From a virus (lineage: Duplodnaviria; Heunggongvirae; Uroviricota; Caudoviricetes): a DNA stretch of 5,910 nucleotides. Of the stretch, positions 1-5,910 are shown in pieces. The notes below the pieces were generated by a model. It had not been told where the DNA came from. It ran no database searches and worked only from the letters and a program-made list of their open reading frames with translations. The stretch is taken from the IMG/VR virus record IMGVR_UViG_2802429232_000005; one strand, given 5' to 3'. The position numbers and the translations under genes were made by a program. Position 1 is the stretch's first letter, and each line of letters begins with the position of its first letter.

Positions 1-39
1 TTTGACTATGAGGTGATGATATCACCTCTATTCAGGTGG

Positions 40-360
40 CCAAATTCACTATGCCACTACATACAAAAGCCTTTCACACACTCCAGACAAACAACTCAAA
101 CACAACAACGAAAGGAATCGCCCACCTGCCATTACTCCATACACGGAGAAGAACAATCACCAAAACGACGAGAACACCCCATAGAAGAACCACCGCAAAA
201 CGAACGAAACCACATACACCGACAGAGAAAACAACACACCCAATTCACCAACAGAAATAGTCGCCGTATAGAACATTCTGGAAGGAGTGAGCATTAACGC
301 CTATAGAAAGGTTGAGACAGATAAAACACGAAGAAAACACAACATGTATAGCGAAGAAGC
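40..360 (+). other. A+C-rich, T/G-poor compositionally skewed tract; probably non-coding (candidate structured-free RNA or ssDNA spacer)
   Basis: Hand count of 61-240 gives roughly A 48-55%, C about 30%, T 3-12%, G 10-13% on the + strand. The ORFs called here (13..297, 36..260) start at GTG and translate to low-complexity T/Q/H/R/K/P-rich peptides. Confidence 0.5.
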
Positions 361-383
361 CAGGTATGTATAAGTGGGGAGGG

Positions 384-408
384 AAGGAGGGGTGTCGCCT
401 CCTTTTTC
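384..408 (+). terminator. Intrinsic terminator-like hairpin (AAGGAGG / CCTCCTT stem, 7-nt loop) followed by T5
   Basis: AAGGAGG (384-390) pairs with CCTCCTT (398-404); TTTTT run 403-407 directly follows the stem. Confidence 0.55.
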
Positions 409-471
409 GTATTTATTCAACTCCTGATTTTATCCCCCCGTAACACCCCTACGGTCAGCCTTCGGTCCATA

Positions 472-606
472 CAGGGAAAGGCTGCATCCTGCTACAGAAA
501 CGGCTGGGTTGCCTTCGGGGAACGGCTGGAGGTTTTCAGGGAAACGGTCGAGTTGCCTGTGTGGATTTCGGGAAAAGGCTCGATGCCGGTTCAGGAACGG
601 TGGTGT
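472..606. repeat. Cluster of about six degenerate ~22-bp direct repeats, core GGGAAACGGCTG (iteron-like)
   Basis: cagggaaaggctg (472), cagaaacggctgg (495), ggggaacggctgg (517), cagggaaacggtcg (537), cgggaaaaggctcg (568), caggaacggtggtg (591); spacing about 22-32 bp. No reverse-complement copies, so these are direct repeats, not a long hairpin. Confidence 0.6.
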
Positions 607-785
607 ACCGGTATAGCGAGAGGGAGAGTTGCGGCTGCCCACCTGTAATGTGCGGGAAGAAGAGAGGCGCTCACGTGCAGGCGGACTAACTTACCGCTGG
701 ATTCCCTCTGAATGCCCAGCTACAGCGTAATTGTGCCAGACAGCCAACGGGTCACAATCGATTTCAGTAGGTTTTCGGGGAGATG

Positions 786-830
786 ATTATTCTGCCCACC
801 AGCCACCTTAGGCCACTAAATCAGAATAAT
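786..830. repeat. Perfect 9-bp inverted repeat ATTATTCTG / CAGAATAAT with 27-bp spacer
   Basis: ATTATTCTG at 786-794 and its exact reverse complement CAGAATAAT at 822-830. Confidence 0.5.
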
Positions 831-917
831 GTAAAAAGTGTACTCGGTACTGAACCTGAAAACTCACTGCCAAAACCACATTCACCGGAATAAAATCCTT
901 TTTCGCCTGTGCGTTAT

Positions 918-957
918 TGCGATAATAACACCATTAAGAAAACATCTTGTTTAAGGA
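918..957 (+). promoter_or_regulatory. Conserved leader module A: extended -10 (TGcGATAAT), AACA-tct-TGTT palindrome, SD AAGGA
   Basis: TGCGATAAT 918-926; palindrome 941-951; AAGGA 953-957, 7 nt before ATG 965. The module recurs upstream of other genes in the array. Confidence 0.5.
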
Positions 958-964
958 TTGCTTT

Positions 965-1294
965 ATGTTTGCAAATATCGACATCAACCAAATTAAGAAA
1001 TTGACTCAAAAAGAGTTTGACCAGTTTTATGAGCTGGAAGGTTGGTCTTCCACTCTGATTAATTCAAGATGGGTGCTGGAACTGATGACTCGTGATGACG
1101 CACCTGCTTTGATGATCAGCGACCTGGGTGAAGATGCTGACTTTATGGATATGAGCGAATTTTGTGTGGACACATACAACCGCAGCCAGAAGTACTACTT
1201 CACATGCGATAGCGAAAATGACGTGATTTCTAAGGTCTATCTTCACCTCGTCCAGCATTGGGACGTTCAGGAGTTTCTTGAGGTATTCGCGTAA
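965..1294 (+). CDS. Hypothetical small acidic protein (109 aa)
   Basis: ATG 965 with SD AAGGA at 7-nt spacing. The ORF track's longer form starts at TTG 947 with no SD. Hand count about 21 D/E vs 8 K/R. Stop TAA 1292-1294, followed by hairpin 1304-1322. Confidence 0.6.
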   Translation: MFANIDINQIKKLTQKEFDQFYELEGWSSTLINSRWVLELMTRDDAPALMISDLGEDADFMDMSEFCVDTYNRSQKYYFTCDSENDVISKVYLHLVQHWDVQEFLEVFA

Positions 1295-1303
1295 TCACAA
1301 CCA

Positions 1304-1322
1304 AAGCCAGCATTGCTGGCTT
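1304..1322 (+). other. GC-rich hairpin AAGCCAGCA / TGCTGGCTT downstream of the 109-aa gene (no clear U-tract)
   Basis: Inverted repeat 1304-1312 / 1314-1322; same AAG-palindrome-CTTAA style as the hairpins at 2926 and 3397. Confidence 0.45.
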
Positions 1323-1391
1323 AACTTAATCTGTAGCCGCAGGGAAGAACCTGCATATCGCTCATGCGCCTGATTAATATGCTTTGTAGCC

Positions 1392-1443
1392 GTTTTCTTA
1401 CTGGTATTATTTACGCCATTGAGAAAACAAGTTGTTTACGGAG
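1392..1443 (+). promoter_or_regulatory. Conserved leader module D: extended -10 (TGgTATTAT), AAACAA-g-TTGTTT palindrome, SD GGAG
   Basis: TGGTATTAT 1392-1400; perfect 6-bp-arm palindrome 1425-1437; GGAG 1440-1443, 5 nt before ATG 1449. Confidence 0.45.
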
Positions 1444-1448
1444 TTGTG

Positions 1449-1760
1449 ATGAAAAAATCATTGGTTCTTGGTCTGGACAAAGACCAGAAGAGAAAAGAGA
1501 AGCCTGCACTGGTTGCTCAATTAACTTTGCTGGATATCGTTGCCAATGGGACCTCTATTCGTCTGTTCCGTGAAACAGCGGTGTCTTTCGATAAAAACAC
1601 CTTTACTCGTTATGTAATGAATGTTCGTCGCCAGCGTGGAAAAGGCTGGGTGGCATTTCAAAGAATGTGGCCGGAACATCAGCTCGAACTGGCTTTGATG
1701 GAAGTTAACCGCGTGGCCCAGCAAGAGATTCAGAGAGCATCAGTGATGGCAATAGCCTGA
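1449..1760 (+). CDS. Hypothetical small basic protein (103 aa); possible nucleic-acid-binding regulator
   Basis: ATG 1449 preceded by GGAG. The ORF-track start TTG 1419 lies inside the palindromic leader and is unlikely. Hand count about 18 K/R vs 10 D/E. Stop TGA 1758-1760, followed by a strong terminator. Confidence 0.55.
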   Translation: MKKSLVLGLDKDQKRKEKPALVAQLTLLDIVANGTSIRLFRETAVSFDKNTFTRYVMNVRRQRGKGWVAFQRMWPEHQLELALMEVNRVAQQEIQRASVMAIA

Positions 1761-1794
1761 TAATGTGCAAGTGGTAATTAGTCGACCGTACGAC

Positions 1795-1822
1795 AGCCCC
1801 GCCATCCTTACGGGGCTTTTTT
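1795..1822 (+). terminator. Rho-independent terminator (AGCCCCG / CGGGGCT stem, 9-nt loop, T6)
   Basis: Stem 1795-1801 / 1811-1817, followed by TTTTTT 1817-1822. Confidence 0.75.
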
Positions 1823-1849
1823 GTATTGTAAGTACATACTTACGATCAT
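1821..1849 (+). promoter_or_regulatory. Putative sigma70 promoter (TTGTAT-N17-GATCAT) with operator-like palindrome GTAAGTA-ca-TACTTAC in the spacer
   Basis: -35-like TTGTAT 1821-1826, -10-like GATCAT 1844-1849; 7-bp-arm palindrome 1828-1843 fills the spacer. Confidence 0.4.
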
Positions 1850-1886
1850 GGAATAGAAAAATAACCAATACACTACGGAGAGTGAA

Positions 1887-2282
1887 ATGACCGTTAAACG
1901 CGAAAAACTGACAGTTGATGTTTACTATGCCTCTGAAACCGCCGAAGGTAAGAATGTGGCAAAAATCACCGTTGTTACGTACAACACCGAAACTGGTGCC
2001 GAAGTCCAGGCCAGTACGATCGTGCGTAAAGGTGATGCCTCCGGCGGCGAGTACGCGACTCAATACCAGTCTATTTTCGATGCAACTGACCCGCTGCTGC
2101 TGAAAATCGAGAACTACTTCCGCCAGGTTGATGAAGAGGTGTTTGAAACCATGATGAATATGGTTAACACCGTATTCGCCTCCAGCCTGAATACCAACAC
2201 TACCTGGATTGGTCAGTACGGCCTGCGCATTACCTCTGGCATTCCTGCCGACACCTTAATCCCTGAAAGCGTATTCGCTTAA
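1887..2282 (+). CDS. Hypothetical protein (131 aa), mildly acidic
   Basis: ATG 1887 with SD GGAG 1877-1880 at 6-nt spacing. Stop TAA 2280-2282, followed by a strong hairpin terminator. Confidence 0.7.
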   Translation: MTVKREKLTVDVYYASETAEGKNVAKITVVTYNTETGAEVQASTIVRKGDASGGEYATQYQSIFDATDPLLLKIENYFRQVDEEVFETMMNMVNTVFASSLNTNTTWIGQYGLRITSGIPADTLIPESVFA

Positions 2283-2291
2283 TCCTCTTTA

Positions 2292-2318
2292 AATGGCGCG
2301 TAAACCGCGCCATTTTAT
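2292..2318 (+). terminator. Rho-independent terminator (AATGGCGCG / CGCGCCATT stem, loop TAAAC, T-rich tail)
   Basis: 9-bp perfect stem 2292-2300 / 2306-2314, followed by TTATTA. Confidence 0.7.
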
Positions 2319-2325
2319 TATGCCC

Positions 2326-2392
2326 GATAACAATTTGTTTTCTGCCTTATCTGATTTGTGAAAATGATTTCACTGAAGCAACTTAATAAGGA
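2326..2392 (+). promoter_or_regulatory. Leader module E: GATAAC, AACAA-t-TTGTT palindrome, shared TGCCTTATCT 10-mer, GTGAAA-atga-TTTCAC palindrome, SD AAGGA
   Basis: Palindromes at 2329-2339 and 2358-2373; TGCCTTATCT 2343-2352 is identical to 3042-3051; AAGGA 2388-2392, 7 nt before ATG 2400. Confidence 0.45.
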
Positions 2393-2399
2393 AACCATC

Positions 2400-2774
2400 A
2401 TGGGACTTGATATCTATATCGAGACGCAGCCTAAAAACGATCTGAATAACGAGGTATCCAGAAAGCAGGTTGCTTACTTCCGTAAGTTCAATGCGCTCGT
2501 TGGGTGGATGGAGCGCAACGTAGGTGAAGTCGAAAATTGTGAGCTTTTAGAATTAACGATGAATGACATTTGCCTTCTGAAAGCTCATTTGATGCACATA
2601 AACGAAAGCAATTGCGAAGAGTACTTGCCTACCCGGGAAGGTTTTTTCTTCGGCAGTCAGGAGTACGACGAAGGTTACTGGCATGATGTGGGGGAGTTGA
2701 AAGAGCTTGTGGAAGATCTGATTAAGAACCACGACTTTCACAATAATAGACTGACCTTCTGCGCCTGGTGGTAA
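2400..2774 (+). CDS. Hypothetical small acidic protein (124 aa)
   Basis: ATG 2400 with SD AAGGA. The ORF-track start GTG 2358 lies inside the operator-like palindrome. Hand count about 23 D/E vs 11 K/R. Stop TAA 2772-2774. Confidence 0.6.
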   Translation: MGLDIYIETQPKNDLNNEVSRKQVAYFRKFNALVGWMERNVGEVENCELLELTMNDICLLKAHLMHINESNCEEYLPTREGFFFGSQEYDEGYWHDVGELKELVEDLIKNHDFHNNRLTFCAWW

Positions 2775-2776
2775 AT

Positions 2777-2920
2777 ATGGGCGATTTCAAGAAACGCCTG
2801 AAGGAGAGAGCCGAGATGGTCAGAAAGCGAAACGCCTCTTCTGTCATCAGATACGCAAGGCAGTTTAGTCGCAACAACAAATCAGTTGAGGAAAAGATCC
2901 TTAGCGTAATCGGGCGATAA
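2777..2920 (+). CDS. Hypothetical very basic small protein (47 aa), possibly translationally coupled to the upstream acidic gene
   Basis: ATG 2777 lies 2 nt after the upstream stop, with GGTGG 5 nt upstream. Hand translation MGDFKKRLKERAEMVRKRNASSVIRYARQFSRNNKSVEEKILSVIGR, stop TAA 2918-2920. Not in the ORF track, presumably below its length cut-off. The stop sits 5 nt before hairpin repeat 2926, the same spacing as stop 3391 to hairpin 3397. Confidence 0.4.
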   Translation: MGDFKKRLKERAEMVRKRNASSVIRYARQFSRNNKSVEEKILSVIGR

Positions 2921-2925
2921 TTATT

Positions 2926-2956
2926 AAGGCCACCAGCATTGGTGGTCTTAAATGAC
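2926..2956 (+). repeat. Hairpin repeat copy 1: AAGGCCACCA-gcat-TGGTGGtCTT + AAATGAC
   Basis: 10-bp stem (one G-T wobble) with 4-nt loop; about 90% identical to the copy at 3397-3428. Confidence 0.6.
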
Positions 2957-3041
2957 TTTTAATAACCGAAGGTTAGTTTGAAACCTGGCTATCAACTTCC
3001 AGAACCTTTCTTGTGTATTCAGCCTGTATTAACTTCTTTTA

Positions 3042-3102
3042 TGCCTTATCTACACTGCGATAATTACACCAACAAGAAAACAACATGTTTACGCAGTGAG
3101 GA
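3042..3102 (+). promoter_or_regulatory. Conserved leader module B: TGCCTTATCT, extended -10 TGcGATAAT, AAACA-aca-TGTTT palindrome, SD GAGGA
   Basis: TGCGATAAT 3056-3064; palindrome 3078-3090 (core AACATGTT is perfect); GAGGA 3098-3102, 7 nt before ATG 3110. Confidence 0.5.
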
Positions 3103-3109
3103 TATGCTC

Positions 3110-3391
3110 ATGACTGATTTCACCATTACCCCTAAAGCACAAAATGTATTTCTTGAATCATGGCTGGACTTGCCGGAAACAGAACAGCAAGAAATGGATC
3201 ATGTGGATTATGACGAGCAGGTAAGCACGCGATTCTTCCACTTTGAGGGATGCGTTTACGACATTGTCGACTTCATGCGAGATGACCGCTTCCCTGAATG
3301 GCACGCAAGCTATCCACTAAACGCCTTTGCCATGCTGATGATCCGTGTGGATGATTCAGGGGATACCATCGACATCGGTCTGCTCCACTAA
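3110..3391 (+). CDS. Hypothetical small, strongly acidic protein (93 aa); DNA-mimic-like composition
   Basis: ATG 3110 with SD GAGGA at 7-nt spacing. In-frame ATG 3104 is too close to the SD, and the track's TTG 2978 start would run through the promoter module. Hand count about 20 D/E vs 5 K/R. Stop TAA 3389-3391. Confidence 0.6.
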   Translation: MTDFTITPKAQNVFLESWLDLPETEQQEMDHVDYDEQVSTRFFHFEGCVYDIVDFMRDDRFPEWHASYPLNAFAMLMIRVDDSGDTIDIGLLH

Positions 3392-3396
3392 AGGCT

Positions 3397-3428
3397 AAGG
3401 CCACCAATGCTGGTGGCCTTAAATGACC
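3397..3428 (+). repeat. Hairpin repeat copy 2: AAGGCCACCA-atgc-TGGTGGCCTT + AAATGACC
   Basis: Perfect 10-bp stem with 4-nt loop, 5 nt after the stop codon; direct repeat of 2926-2956. Confidence 0.6.
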
Positions 3429-3520
3429 ATCCTGTTTCCCTCAGGCTAATAACACCAACCTCTTACCTCCAGGCAACCGACAAACCCACCTGTTCCCGTC
3501 CGGCTACCGCAACTTTCCAC

Positions 3521-3588
3521 TTTGACGCCTTATTCGTACAACGATAATTAATACCAACAAGAAAACAATTTGTTATTTACGATAAGGA
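3521..3588 (+). promoter_or_regulatory. Conserved leader module C: sigma70-like promoter TTTGAC-N16-GATAAT, AACAA-t-TTGTT palindrome, SD AAGGA
   Basis: TTTGAC 3521-3526, GATAAT 3543-3548; palindrome 3564-3574; AAGGA 3584-3588, 7 nt before ATG 3596. Confidence 0.55.
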
Positions 3589-3595
3589 ATTAATC

Positions 3596-4078
3596 ATGAA
3601 TTTTATCGCTACTGTAAACGCACCCGCACATGGCAATATCGCTGTAACGTTCTCTGACATTGAAAAACGAGTACTTGGTGCATGGCGCGACAATGAGACG
3701 GTAGAACTGTCAGCACAAGAAAAATGCATTATTGCACGCGACATCATTGGCAATCGTCGTTACTCGCGGGTATTTGAGAAAGCGTATGTGGTAAATTCTG
3801 GATTCGGAACGTTCGTCTTTCCGGTGCGCTCCGGGCGATTCTGCCAGTCCAAGCTGATTGAGTTCGCTACGCAGATTTCTGTCTGGATTAAAACTCAATC
3901 GTCGTTCAAATTTTCCGACGATGAAGCAGTATCGCAGGGGATGCGGATCGCCAACAATGCGATTAAATGCAAAAACATTACGTATACCGCTGGCGTTGAT
4001 ACATGGAAACTGTTTTGCGCTAACTTTATGCTGAACGTATACGCCAGCAACCGCATCCACATCCTTGATGGCGTGTAA
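3596..4078 (+). CDS. Hypothetical protein (160 aa)
   Basis: ATG 3596 with SD and a near-consensus promoter upstream. Stop TAA 4076-4078, followed by a stable hairpin. Confidence 0.7.
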   Translation: MNFIATVNAPAHGNIAVTFSDIEKRVLGAWRDNETVELSAQEKCIIARDIIGNRRYSRVFEKAYVVNSGFGTFVFPVRSGRFCQSKLIEFATQISVWIKTQSSFKFSDDEAVSQGMRIANNAIKCKNITYTAGVDTWKLFCANFMLNVYASNRIHILDGV

Positions 4079-4080
4079 CT

Positions 4081-4109
4081 GAGAAGAGGGCCAGAAACGG
4101 CCCTTTCTC
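4081..4109 (+). terminator. Stable hairpin (GAGAAGAGGGCC / GGCCCTTTCTC, loop AGAAAC) after the 160-aa gene; weak U-tract
   Basis: About 11-bp stem with a 1-nt bulge; the loop carries the CAGAAACGGC repeat motif; the T-rich tail lies partly inside the stem. Confidence 0.4.
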
Positions 4110-4123
4110 TATAGCCACCAGCT

Positions 4124-4206
4124 GCCGCAGGGAAATTTTCAGAAACGGCAAGGAACGCATTCATGAGCCGACGGGAAACGGCCAGGATTTTTTCGGGAAA
4201 CGGCTG
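4124..4206. repeat. Second cluster of GGGAAACGGC-type direct repeats (4-5 degenerate units)
   Basis: cagggaaa (4129), cagaaacggc (4140), aggaacgc (4151), cgggaaacggcc (4172), cgggaaacggctg (4194). GCCGCAGGGAA at 4124-4134 also occurs at 1336-1346. Confidence 0.55.
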
Positions 4207-4334
4207 CATTCGCCTTTGTGTAGAAAAAAACATCGGGAAGCTGGTGGAATCCAACCAGCGGTTGTCGGACAGGTGAGCGGGGAAAATTATGATGACTTTC
4301 GTCGCCTGAGACATCCAGATTTCTTTCGTAGCAT

Positions 4335-4388
4335 AATCACATACGTGATTAAGTGGTGTGATTATGTGAAAAATCACGCGCACATAAT
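4335..4388. promoter_or_regulatory. Cluster of GTGATT / AATCAC inverted repeats; candidate operator or origin-like site
   Basis: AATCAC-atac-GTGATT at 4335-4350; ATTATGTG (4361-4368) and CACATAAT (4381-4388) form a perfect 8-bp inverted repeat; four GTGATT/AATCAC hexamers in alternating orientation. Confidence 0.35.
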
Positions 4389-4420
4389 ACGCGAGCGGAT
4401 ACGGAACAAAACAAAATGCC

Positions 4421-4448
4421 GATCCGCGCCGACAAATAAACGCGGATC
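4421..4448. other. Perfect 8-bp inverted repeat GATCCGCG / CGCGGATC with 12-nt spacer, containing two GATC sites
   Basis: GATCCGCG 4421-4428 and CGCGGATC 4441-4448. Confidence 0.4.
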
Positions 4449-4618
4449 ATAAAGCAAGACTAAAAGCCAATGATTAACCATACACCATAACGCAATATAA
4501 CGCGTTTTAAGCGCGTTAATGCGCTAAGTAATGGGTATATGCTGGTAAGGATATAAAAGCTCGTCTATGGCGTTATTTTTGCGCTTATTTTTATATTGTT
4601 GGAGTGAGTCAAAGACAA

Positions 4619-4642
4619 TAAAAAAAGCGCCATCATTGGCGC
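4619..4642 (-). terminator. Rho-independent terminator on the minus strand (GCGCCA / TGGCGC stem, then T-run on the minus strand)
   Basis: Stem 4627-4632 / 4637-4642; the A-run at 4619-4626 on + is a U-run after the hairpin on the minus strand. Confidence 0.6.
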
Positions 4643-4666
4643 GTTATGGTGGAAGTATTGGAAACG

Positions 4667-4689
4667 AAAAAAGCGCCCATAGTGGGCGC
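4667..4689 (-). terminator. Rho-independent terminator on the minus strand (GCGCCCA / TGGGCGC stem, loop TAG, T6 on the minus strand)
   Basis: Stem 4673-4679 / 4683-4689 preceded on + by AAAAAA 4667-4672; lies just downstream of the 76-aa gene stop. Confidence 0.7.
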
Positions 4690-4695
4690 TCGATT

Positions 4696-4926
4696 TTATT
4701 TATGTAAACTGATTTCAAATCCCATTTCTACAAACGCTTTTAACATTAAAAATATATCAGCGTCATTCACGTCTGCTTTTTTTCGCTCCTGGTCGCTCAA
4801 TAAGTCAATTTTGCGCGTCGTTTCATCTATAAGCTCGACTGCGCGCCCAGCGTAACCAGCGATCCCAGCGATGCGATTAACAAAATATTCATTGCGCACG
4901 TTAACGCCAGCGATAATCATAAACAT
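4696..4926 (-). CDS. Hypothetical small protein (76 aa)
   Basis: ATG (complement of 4924-4926) with SD AAGGAG (complement of 4934-4939) at 7-nt spacing. Flanked by near-identical terminator hairpins; AT-rich codon usage like the adjacent 216-aa gene. Confidence 0.6.
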   Translation of the reverse strand: MFMIIAGVNVRNEYFVNRIAGIAGYAGRAVELIDETTRKIDLLSDQERKKADVNDADIFLMLKAFVEMGFEISLHK

Positions 4927-4939
4927 GATTAAGCTCCTT

Positions 4940-4960
4940 AAAAGCGCCCATAGTGGGCGC
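4940..4960 (-). terminator. Rho-independent terminator on the minus strand between the 216-aa and 76-aa genes; near-identical to 4667-4689
   Basis: Stem GCGCCCA 4944-4950 / TGGGCGC 4954-4960, loop TAG. On the minus strand it is followed by TTTT and then immediately the AAGGAG SD of the 76-aa gene. Confidence 0.65.
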
Positions 4961-4973
4961 CAGATTCCATTAA

Positions 4974-5624
4974 TTACGCTTTGAAAGCATCAGCCAGATA
5001 GTTATAGAAATCATTTTTAATAAAGCGATATTGCTGCGTACCAGCTTTTGCGCTTCCCATTCCTTTGACTTTCTCAACAAGTCCAAGACGTTCGCAAAGA
5101 TTGATCAACTGGTTGGCTTGAGTATAGCCAGCGTCCAATTTAATTTCGCACGCTTTTTTAGCTTCATTCATTAAATCGAAAACAGCGCCATTAGTGAACG
5201 TGTCGATCTCGTCGTTAATCATATCGATTAAAGCGAATACACGAGATCCTGACATATCAGCGATGGAGTAAACGCATTTACCAGATTTAATTGATTTAAC
5301 CAGATAAACCAGTTTTTCCAGTGAATAACTATTAGTCATTGCATCACGAAAAAATACTTCTGGCGCTTGTTTACTTGCTTTAATCGCATAGTAGAAAACA
5401 GAGCATAATTTTTCATCTTCTACAGCGTTTACAACGTTGTTGATGAAGTAAGCAAGTTTAGTGGTCGCAGCTTGCATATTTGCTTTGTCTGCTTTAGTGT
5501 GCGTACCATTTTTATAATGTTCGTTATATGTTTGAGTTGCCAGATCTGCTTTTTCGCGCAGCTCGTCGGATACAATGGATGCAGCTTCAATGATGGATTT
5601 TTTAGAAATGATAATGTTAGCCAT
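4974..5624 (-). CDS. Hypothetical protein (216 aa), Lys/Ala-rich, AT-rich codon usage; family not recognised
   Basis: ATG (complement of 5622-5624) with SD AAGGA (complement of 5633-5637) at 8-nt spacing; long uninterrupted ORF; terminator directly downstream. Confidence 0.7.
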   Translation of the reverse strand: MANIIISKKSIIEAASIVSDELREKADLATQTYNEHYKNGTHTKADKANMQAATTKLAYFINNVVNAVEDEKLCSVFYYAIKASKQAPEVFFRDAMTNSYSLEKLVYLVKSIKSGKCVYSIADMSGSRVFALIDMINDEIDTFTNGAVFDLMNEAKKACEIKLDAGYTQANQLINLCERLGLVEKVKGMGSAKAGTQQYRFIKNDFYNYLADAFKA

Positions 5625-5760
5625 GATAATATCCTTATGAAAGTTTAAAATTTAACTCAAGAAAGAAAGTGTTTACTCTCGTTCCTGATGCGTTCAATTA
5701 TCGATACGCAAAAAAAGATTGCAAGTATTTTTTTAAATTTTTTGCAGGGACGAAAGTCCT
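5625..5760 (-). promoter_or_regulatory. AT-rich upstream region of the 216-aa gene (promoter not resolved); contains a GGAC-GAAA-GTCC mini-hairpin
   Basis: About 30% GC, A/T runs, position relative to the start codon; GGACGAAAGTCC at about 5749-5760. Confidence 0.3.
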
Positions 5761-5910
5761 AGAAATAAAATCGAGATCGTCGAAGGTGTTCCCTAAATAA
5801 ATAATTAATTCCGGCTTATAACCTTATATATTTATACGGGGTAGAATTGGAGGTGTATTTAATAATTGGCATTTAAAAAAATAACCGAACTTAGCCTGTT
5901 ATTACACTTA

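Follow-up and report, generated by a model that had tools for sequence, protein, structure and literature searches.

The SSU5-type element and its two-gene region

The window analysed here is a stretch of 5,910 nucleotides (nt) of virus DNA (IMG/VR record IMGVR_UViG_2802429232_000005), and our subject is its last part, positions 4450-5910, where two genes on the minus strand are accompanied by repeated hairpins. The open reading frames (ORFs) lie where an earlier note on this DNA had placed them: one of 216 amino acids (aa) at 4974-5624, with a Shine-Dalgarno (SD) sequence, TAAGGA, at 5632-5637, and one of 76 aa at 4696-4926. The source element of the window is an SSU5-type phage-plasmid. SSU5-like phage-plasmids are common in clinical Enterobacteriaceae, and the regulation of these elements is largely uncharted. 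Comparison of relatives shows that the 216-aa gene belongs to their conserved core and that the 76-aa gene, an optional cassette, occupies a slot with copies of one hairpin at its bounds.

When positions 4450-5910 were searched against plasmid records, 760 records matched, 732 of them typed as non-mobilizable, and the best match was Escherichia coli pSCMY1 at 98.6% identity. The matching plasmids, among those listed, measure about 100-130 kilobases (kb), with one of 166 kb, and their genera are Escherichia, Klebsiella, Enterobacter, Yersinia, Salmonella, and Citrobacter. Phages PhiR41_1, Cyrano, and CMS-2020a matched at 91-93% and Salmonella phage SSU5 at 77%. In nucleotide similarity and gene order, the window agrees with SSU5, Cyrano, and pHCM2-type elements, which measure about 100-115 kb. 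On one side lie terminase, an ABC-like ATPase, and two ParB-N genes; onward, past a UvsW-like helicase and a gene for a transcriptional regulator, come the 216-aa and 76-aa genes and, convergent with them, an array of small genes; metG lies farther away. For the comparisons below, about 90 related loci, individually given L-numbers, were oriented and compared after the 216-aa stop codon, and the pSCMY1 sequence (113 kb, nearly complete) served as the whole-element reference for composition and repeat counts.

The 216-aa gene as a core gene

Judged by its distribution and synteny, the 216-aa gene (phrog_1513) is a conserved core gene of SSU5-like phage-plasmids. Its homologues all lie on contigs of about 100-115 kb from Enterobacterales, and within the phage collection it is carried by SSU5-like phages only. 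An exhaustive profile search of 1.84 billion protein representatives recovered the family in only 23 clusters, and a second profile search with a widened alignment gave no match outside the same narrow, unannotated 216-aa family. The gene occupies the same position in every SSU5-like element examined, including relatives at 30-33% protein identity (P0187, P0189, and P0204), where it lies downstream of a DEAD/UvsW-type helicase in the same synteny, with the ParB-N/ABC/terminase block on the opposite side and a small-gene array running towards it. The gene is under strong purifying selection, with a median ratio of nonsynonymous to synonymous substitution rates (dN/dS) of 0.065 at a dS of about 0.97 among 67 distinct alleles.

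The drop in guanine-cytosine (GC) content reported for this region is real, but it is smaller than the fall from about 50% to 30-38% described earlier, being 37.2% for 4450-5910 against 45.7% for 1-4449. By part, the 216-aa gene has a GC content of 37.8%, the 76-aa gene 40.3%, and the upstream spacer 30.1%. Within the whole element (46.6%; standard deviation of 3.9% for windows of 1461 nt), 4450-5910 falls at the 2.4th percentile, and GC at third codon positions (GC3) of the 216-aa gene is 0.35 compared with a mean of 0.48 for the ORFs of the element. Across 92 loci, the 216-aa gene has a mean GC content of 39.1% versus 45.4% in the surrounding 8.6 kb, and in a distant relative the homologue has 41% versus 54% in its surroundings. 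Because the gene is AT-rich in all lineages, its low GC is no mark of recent acquisition; by this comparison, it is an old, maintained property and not the trace of a recent arrival. The earlier note had read the whole AT-rich module as separately acquired and had itself named homologues in a conserved core context as what would speak against this. Such homologues are what we found for the 216-aa gene, and the synteny, the low dN/dS, and the AT-richness across lineages give no support to a separate acquisition of the whole module.

Hairpins and terminators after the two genes

The duplicated hairpin described earlier is present. The sequence AAAAGCGCCCATAGTGGGCGC, a 21-nt repeat that extends to 35 nt at 86% identity, occurs identically at 4669-4689 and 4940-4960, the former copy starting 2 nt later than the position 4667 that had been given. 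The copy that follows the 216-aa gene, here called T1 (GCGCCCA-CUA-UGGGCGC; minus strand, 4940-4960), begins 13 nt past the stop codon and is a putative leaky terminator with the native tail UUUUAAGGAG. It directly abuts the SD of the 76-aa gene, as had been claimed: a spacer, the hairpin, UUUU, and the SD (AAGGAG, 4934-4939) fill the 47 nt that separate the two genes, and the ATG lies at 4924-4926. The second copy, T2 (minus strand, 4665-4691), has the same stem and loop, lies 4-5 nt past the 76-aa stop codon, and carries a full U-tract, UUUUUUCG. The third related hairpin of the earlier note was also recovered, as GCGCCATCATTGGCGC at 4627-4642. It belongs to T3 (minus strand, 4620-4642), a putative back-up terminator found by scanning and folding and consisting of (AAC)GCGCCA-loop-UGGCGC(GUU) followed by seven U.

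Minus-strand folding energies for T1, T2, and T3 were -14.1, -15.5, and -11.1 kcal/mol, respectively, with a z value of -4.3 for T2. The terminator scan called T2 and T3 as intrinsic terminators, with 6-7 U after the stem; T1, which has the stem but just four U, was not among its calls. The stretch 4000-5910 is enriched in terminator-like sites (8 versus 2.1 +/- 1.4 in shuffled sequences), and the scan gave two more terminator-like hairpins on the minus strand at 4449-4420 and 4393-4377.

The stem GCGCCCA/TGGGCGC is intact in 169 of 170 hairpin copies from 88 loci. Since six of its seven positions were set by the search pattern, what counts here is that essentially every locus has the hairpin. 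Synonymous sites of the adjoining gene are near saturation. The loop varies, with CTA in 138 copies, TAG in 18, and ten other variants. A T3-type terminator lies about 45 nt past the last hairpin copy in 59 related loci, and here too the stem is invariant and the loop variable and often inverted (TTGT/ACAA, ATGA/TCAT). Two distant relatives at 30-33% identity have a terminator 11-12 nt past the stop codon with different stems, CGCGCC... in L006 and GATCCGCA... in L007; in another distant relative, L095, the scan gave no terminator right after the 216-aa homologue. The kept position with different stems in L006 and L007 points to selection on termination and its position and not on sequence, and the comparative pattern of the hairpin is consistent with a structure under selection to end transcripts at one set position.

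Copies of the hairpin that are followed by a gene differ in their U-tracts from copies that end the unit: in the former the tract is decayed and passes into the SD, and in the latter about six U are kept, with a second terminator behind them. Internal copies (n = 82) have a mean T-run of 2.4, with 4.3 T in 8 nt, while terminal copies (n = 88) have a mean T-run of 5.9, with 6.0 of 8.

The 17-nt hairpin core has two copies in the 113-kb pSCMY1, both at this locus, and it is therefore not a dispersed repeat. Among the 2.9 million viral contigs of IMG/VR, the hairpin occurs in 94 stretches, 87 of which have the 216-aa gene within 575 nt; of the other seven, five are at the border of the sequence that was fetched, and two follow an unrelated gene in an unrelated phage. 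A dispersed element of the repetitive extragenic palindrome (REP) or miniature inverted-repeat transposable element (MITE) kind was ruled out by the two copies per element and this specificity for the locus.

Some further properties of these hairpins were observed. The identical 19-nt hairpin, AGCGCCCACTATGGGCGCT, also stands at the end of an unrelated gene in L097 (12915-12933) and L184 (1472-1490), two viral contigs without the 216-aa gene; this could reflect convergence or terminator transfer. T2 was also called as a plus-strand terminator (4672-4690, tail CGATTTTATT) and could act bidirectionally against read-through from the convergent array. Loop flips among the hairpin and T3 copies of relatives L009-L093 (138/18 for CTA/TAG, 25/8 for TTGT/ACAA, and 9/7 for ATGA/TCAT) suggest that short palindromes flip frequently, and elsewhere in the window two terminators share a stem with inverted loops, GGCCACCAGCATTGGTGG (2925-2950) versus GGCCACCAATGCTGGTGG (3399-3420).

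The small-gene slot

As comparison of the slot among loci indicates, the 76-aa gene (family B, phrog_1585) is an optional cassette in a hairpin-bounded slot. Of 93 loci, 45 gave no 76-aa gene; an unrelated 67-aa gene takes its place there, or nothing does. The slot may be empty, with one hairpin at +11 to +13 and the second-type terminator about 45 nt on (L066, L013, and L085). It may hold one gene and two hairpins, the gene being either of 67 aa (family A, phrog_6145; SSU5_119), as in L003 and L041, or of 75/76 aa (family B), as in the window, L009, and L010. Double occupancy takes the form of A + B (67 + 76 aa) with two hairpins (L014 and L016) or of a B-variant + B (75 + 76 aa) with three (L034 and L036). 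Whatever the state of the slot, a copy of the same hairpin, GCGCCCA-loop-TGGGCGC, stands behind the 216-aa gene and another behind the last small gene, if there is one. In empty sites, the hairpin is followed by TTTTTTCGTTTC...T3, identical to the sequence past the last copy of occupied sites. This shared junction implies that the repeating unit comprises the hairpin, a short U remnant with the SD, the ORF, and about 6 nt, placed ahead of the original terminator. The distance from hairpin to ATG is 20-35 nt in most lineages, and pMT1-type loci have a 70-nt spacer.

Families A and B are mutually unrelated, and both are under purifying selection, with dN/dS of 0.065 and 0.21, respectively. Since the 216-aa gene often occurs without the 76-aa gene, the two proteins are not obligate partners. 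The suggestion that they are made at a fixed ratio as such partners is accordingly unlikely, given the many relatives in which the 216-aa gene is followed by another small gene or none.

The family A protein SSU5_119 (L003 8085-8288; 67 aa, isoelectric point [pI] of 9.7, 16 of 67 residues Lys or Arg) is annotated as 'MIT family metal ion transporter CorA', a label that phrog_6145 inherits. The label is very unlikely because the protein is soluble, has 67 residues, and has no Pfam match; it is probably an annotation artefact.

Upstream region and expression

The consensus scan found a sigma-70-like promoter on the minus strand at 5697-5724 (TTGCAA, a 16-nt spacer, and GATAAT, with an A-rich tract ahead), which is the sole minus-strand promoter-like site within 4000-5910; none was found between 4700 and 5690. 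Both hexamers and the upstream A-tract are kept in an alignment of 12 diverse relatives. The same alignment revealed three minus-strand boxes farther upstream, TTTATTTCTAGGAC (5755-5768), ATTTATTTAGGGAACACCTTCGA (5780-5802), and AAATATATAAGG (5822-5833), which are nearly invariant across the 12 loci while their flanks vary. The boxes TTTATTTCTAGGAC and ATTTATTTAGGGAACACCTTCGA are unique within the 113-kb element. From their conservation, all three are candidate regulator-binding sites. Close copies of AAATATATAAGG, in the form AAATATATACGGAAGCAGG, occur at pSCMY1 33783 and 112061 (L004 and L001), about 135 nt upstream of genes preceding a DnaB-like helicase and the large terminase, respectively, and may represent a shared phage promoter or regulatory motif.

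RNA sequencing (RNA-seq) of LF82, which carries Cyrano, offers a view of expression. The Cyrano counterparts of the two genes, CYRAN_113 and CYRAN_112, are at the floor in lysogeny broth (LB) and rise only in the MB6 column, to about 43 and 20 fragments per kilobase per million (FPKM), respectively, with the +5 offset removed. Neither is among the genes listed by the RNA-seq authors as expressed in lysogeny, and both genes are silent in this one lysogen. The CYRAN_112:CYRAN_113 ratio of about 0.45 is compatible with partial termination and too noisy to count. We considered the 216-aa protein as the lysogeny repressor and rejected it, as its Cyrano homologue is at the floor in the lysogen and another gene is listed as the putative repressor.

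Proposed scheme and alternative explanations

We consider it fairly probable, from comparative sequence data, that the locus is one conserved transcription unit in which a core gene is followed by a hairpin-bounded slot for promoterless small genes. A sigma-70-type promoter within the very AT-rich, motif-rich spacer would drive the 216-aa gene. Where no gene lies downstream, the hairpin would form a complete intrinsic terminator, with the second terminator about 45 nt later as a back-up. The terminator tR2 is almost fully repressed in vivo a few base pairs (bp) past a stop codon and reaches an efficiency of about 0.9 beyond 30 bp (Li et al., PMC4824070), and such repression of near terminators would explain why T3 is placed about 45 nt later. 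Promoterless small genes would have been inserted or duplicated at the hairpin as units of hairpin, U-remnant with SD, and ORF, which would leave the same hairpin on both sides of the 76-aa gene. Attenuated read-through across T1 into the 76-aa gene, as the earlier note had proposed, is plausible; it fits the anatomy, and the U-tract comparison is in its favour. With the U-tract of T1 mostly lost and T1 within reach of a ribosome at the stop codon, termination there would be only partial, and the 76-aa gene most likely relies on read-through, which would leave it less strongly expressed than the 216-aa gene. The last hairpin copy and T3 would then stop transcription and protect the convergent small-gene array, and the direct repeat of 21-35 nt would offer a route for cassette loss and exchange by recombination. 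In this scheme, an apparent foreign island is recast as a defined unit, in which a core gene with a conserved promoter is followed by a slot of polymorphic content between copies of one terminator.

Several points weigh against a single unit of this kind. No hairpin lies between the small genes in the 67 + 76 arrangement, and not every cassette has its own copy. With four U and a stem of -14 kcal/mol, T1 might terminate efficiently, and a weak promoter may lie inside the 3' end of the 216-aa gene, beyond the reach of the consensus scan. The RNA-seq ratio comes from very low counts and reverses in other conditions. Finally, the invariance of the stem could alternatively mark a specific binding or recombination site, or gene conversion between copies.

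Some of these points find a place in other explanations of the locus. If the 76-aa gene were transcribed independently, T1 would be an efficient terminator, the promoter of the 76-aa gene would lie within the 216-aa 3' end, and the hairpins would be alike through gene conversion. The perfect GC-rich stem of 7-8 bp with its four U would suit this, recombination between short direct repeats at a spacing of 271 nt can keep them alike, and the spacer between hairpin and ORF in pMT1-type loci has room for a promoter. We nevertheless hold independent transcription to be rather unlikely, because the scan gave no minus-strand promoter-like match in 4700-5690, the hairpin is so close to the ATG in most lineages, and the decay of the U-tract is systematic in the 82 internal copies. 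The acquired module of the earlier note, extended to two recently arrived genes whose products act together at a ratio fixed by the attenuator, would account for the low GC of the region, for the low GC3 of the 216-aa gene, and for the hairpin-SD anatomy, which is as claimed. It is largely refuted by synteny in our comparisons: the 216-aa gene is strongly constrained and is syntenic and AT-rich in all lineages down to 30-33% identity, and the 76-aa gene was not found in nearly half of the loci, which speaks against an obligate partnership. We hold this account to be very improbable.

The hairpin might also be primarily a recognition site, either a folded-DNA recombination site of the attC kind or an RNA or DNA operator of a phage protein, with termination secondary. 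A stem that is invariant despite saturated synonymous sites nearby, a position exactly at the cassette boundaries, confinement to this locus, and occasional inversion of the whole hairpin (loop CTA to TAG in 18 copies) are what such a site could look like. The perfect hairpin of 17-21 nt lacks attC features, however, with no integron integrase nearby, and an Rfam scan of the whole window at E values up to 1 gave no match. The loop, usually the recognition element, varies freely, two distant relatives have a hairpin of other sequence at the same offset, and T3 likewise combines an invariant stem with a variable loop, which fits plain structural constraint. We therefore regard a recognition site as quite improbable.

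How the slot compares with described systems

The nearest parallel is the promoter-early stem-loop (PeSL) cassette of T4-type phages, where small ORFs are flanked by repeats of a promoter and a stem-loop and are shuffled by means of these repeats (Arbiol et al. 2010, PMC2839356; Comeau et al. 2014, PMC4122927). In both cases, conserved terminator stem-loop repeats bound small non-essential ORFs, and indels or replacements between relatives fall at the repeats; here, empty, single, and double slots are all hairpin-bounded. PeSLs differ in joining a composite sigma-70 early promoter to the stem-loop, whereas no promoter-like site adjoins either hairpin copy here, and in occurring as dozens of copies over hyperplastic regions, whereas we found two per genome at one locus. 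Outside the T4 group, this locus, a tidy instance of phage genes being shuffled as modules, offers a concrete, testable case in which regulatory hairpins act as the joints where genes come and go.

Attenuators within operons and tandem fail-safe terminators likewise have a GC-rich stem and a U-tract past a stop codon, with a weak internal and a strong terminal U-tract, and lie near the stop codon, where ribosomes repress termination (PMC4824070). An exact hairpin duplication linked to gene presence or absence is no general property of attenuators, however, and termination here is read from sequence. Integron cassettes resemble the slot in having tandem promoterless small ORFs, each ending with a hairpin repeat, one upstream promoter, and variable content. 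In contrast, attC is an imperfect palindrome of 57-141 nt with conserved core sites, compared with a perfect one of 17-21 nt here, and the slot holds 0-2 cassettes with no IntI or attI. No integrase was found within about 50 kb of the locus in pSCMY1, where the sole tyrosine recombinase lies at 44.3 kb and the locus at 103 kb, and a paper on integrons in phages gave nothing on this locus. Lambdoid morons are also optional small genes between conserved genes and delimited by a terminator, but these have a promoter of their own and are active in the prophage state; we found no promoter for the 76-aa gene, and CYRAN_112 is at the detection floor in LB.

The two proteins

Searches of Pfam, NCBIfam, PADLOC, and PDB sequences gave nothing for the 216-aa protein, the 76-aa protein, or the seven adjoining small ORFs. 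The earlier observation that neither protein was recognised holds for Pfam, NCBIfam, and PADLOC. In PHROGs, the two proteins match phrog_1513 and phrog_1585, both families without an assigned function.

The structural model of the 216-aa protein is confident (predicted local distance difference test [pLDDT] of 91, predicted template modelling score [pTM] of 0.83). The predicted fold consists of an N-terminal helical bundle, made of a long helical hairpin with three more helices (residues 8-114), a winged-helix unit (126-201), and a terminal helix, so that the predicted C-terminal domain has the winged-helix fold; no full-length structural match was found in PDB or BFVD. Conservation is highest in NSYSLEKLV (98-106) and in YTQANQL (167-173), the putative recognition helix. 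This helix, Y167-L173, is invariant within the close family, and T168 and Q169 are invariant even across the widened alignment. DNA binding is weakened as a reading by the acidity of the winged-helix domain, which has a pI of 5.0 compared with 7.6 for the whole protein. We consider DNA binding a reasonable guess that could go either way. Winged-helix proteins of the ArsR, MarR, PerR, and TubR groups are set apart by the absence of both a sequence-profile match and a full-length structural match for the 216-aa protein; for MarR/ArsR-type families, no Pfam, NCBIfam, or PDB sequence match was obtained.

The 76-aa protein has a predicted beta-alpha-beta-beta-alpha-beta, ferredoxin/ACT-like fold in a model of moderate confidence only. 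It differs from stand-alone ACT-like domains in having no Pfam, NCBIfam, or PDB profile match, its fold being a prediction of that model. Within its gene, positions 4841-4870 hold a 9-nt tandem repeat in three copies that encodes IAG-IAG-YAG, and the natural alleles P0148, P0153, and P0155 have in-frame deletions of 3 or 6 residues exactly at this repeat. The first helix thus seems prone to changes in length by slippage.

Iterons and the neighbouring small-gene array

Iteron-like direct repeats with the core GGGAA(A)CGG lie on the plus strand at 474-600, with a period of about 22 nt, and at 4092-4204, flanking the small-gene array on both sides. The pattern has 7 matches in the window versus 0.26 expected, and the 113-kb pSCMY1 has these two clusters only. 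They are not near the RepB-family gene, and this distance ruled them out as iterons of the plasmid replicon. The layout of two clusters recurs in SSU5 (L003 3911-4030 and 7511-7567) and in relatives at 30-33% identity of the 216-aa protein (L006 9034-9165 and 13667-13879; L095 9036-9256 and 13755-13926). The clusters are candidates for an origin, regulator sites, or handcuffing, with the adjacent 216-aa protein as a candidate binder. A bolder possibility, which we think unlikely, is that the 216-aa protein specifically binds the GGGAA(A)CGG iterons, whose clusters lie on both sides of the array in every lineage, and forms with them an undescribed lytic-phase control or origin module, the hairpin being a dedicated capture site for promoterless accessory genes that ride on the expression of this module. 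The 216-aa family, its upstream boxes, and the nearby iterons are candidates for the study of lytic-cycle control in SSU5-like elements.

A box of about 45 nt recurs ahead of four plus-strand small genes of the array (895-967, 1379-1451, 3040-3112, and 3526-3598), and each of these genes ends with a terminator hairpin. The box reads GCCTTaTc..TGCGATAATtACACCAa.AAGAAAACAAnnTGTT..TAAGGA..ATG, with a -10-like GATAAT followed by an AAACA-N-TGTTT palindrome. It looks like a repeated promoter-operator module, more PeSL-like than the hairpin slot. At the far end of the window, positions 60-300, in which no convincing ORF was found, are A+C-rich and strand-asymmetric, with almost no G/T runs, an AT skew of +0.45, a GC skew of -0.31, and short repeats such as AGAAGAAC...AAAACGA.

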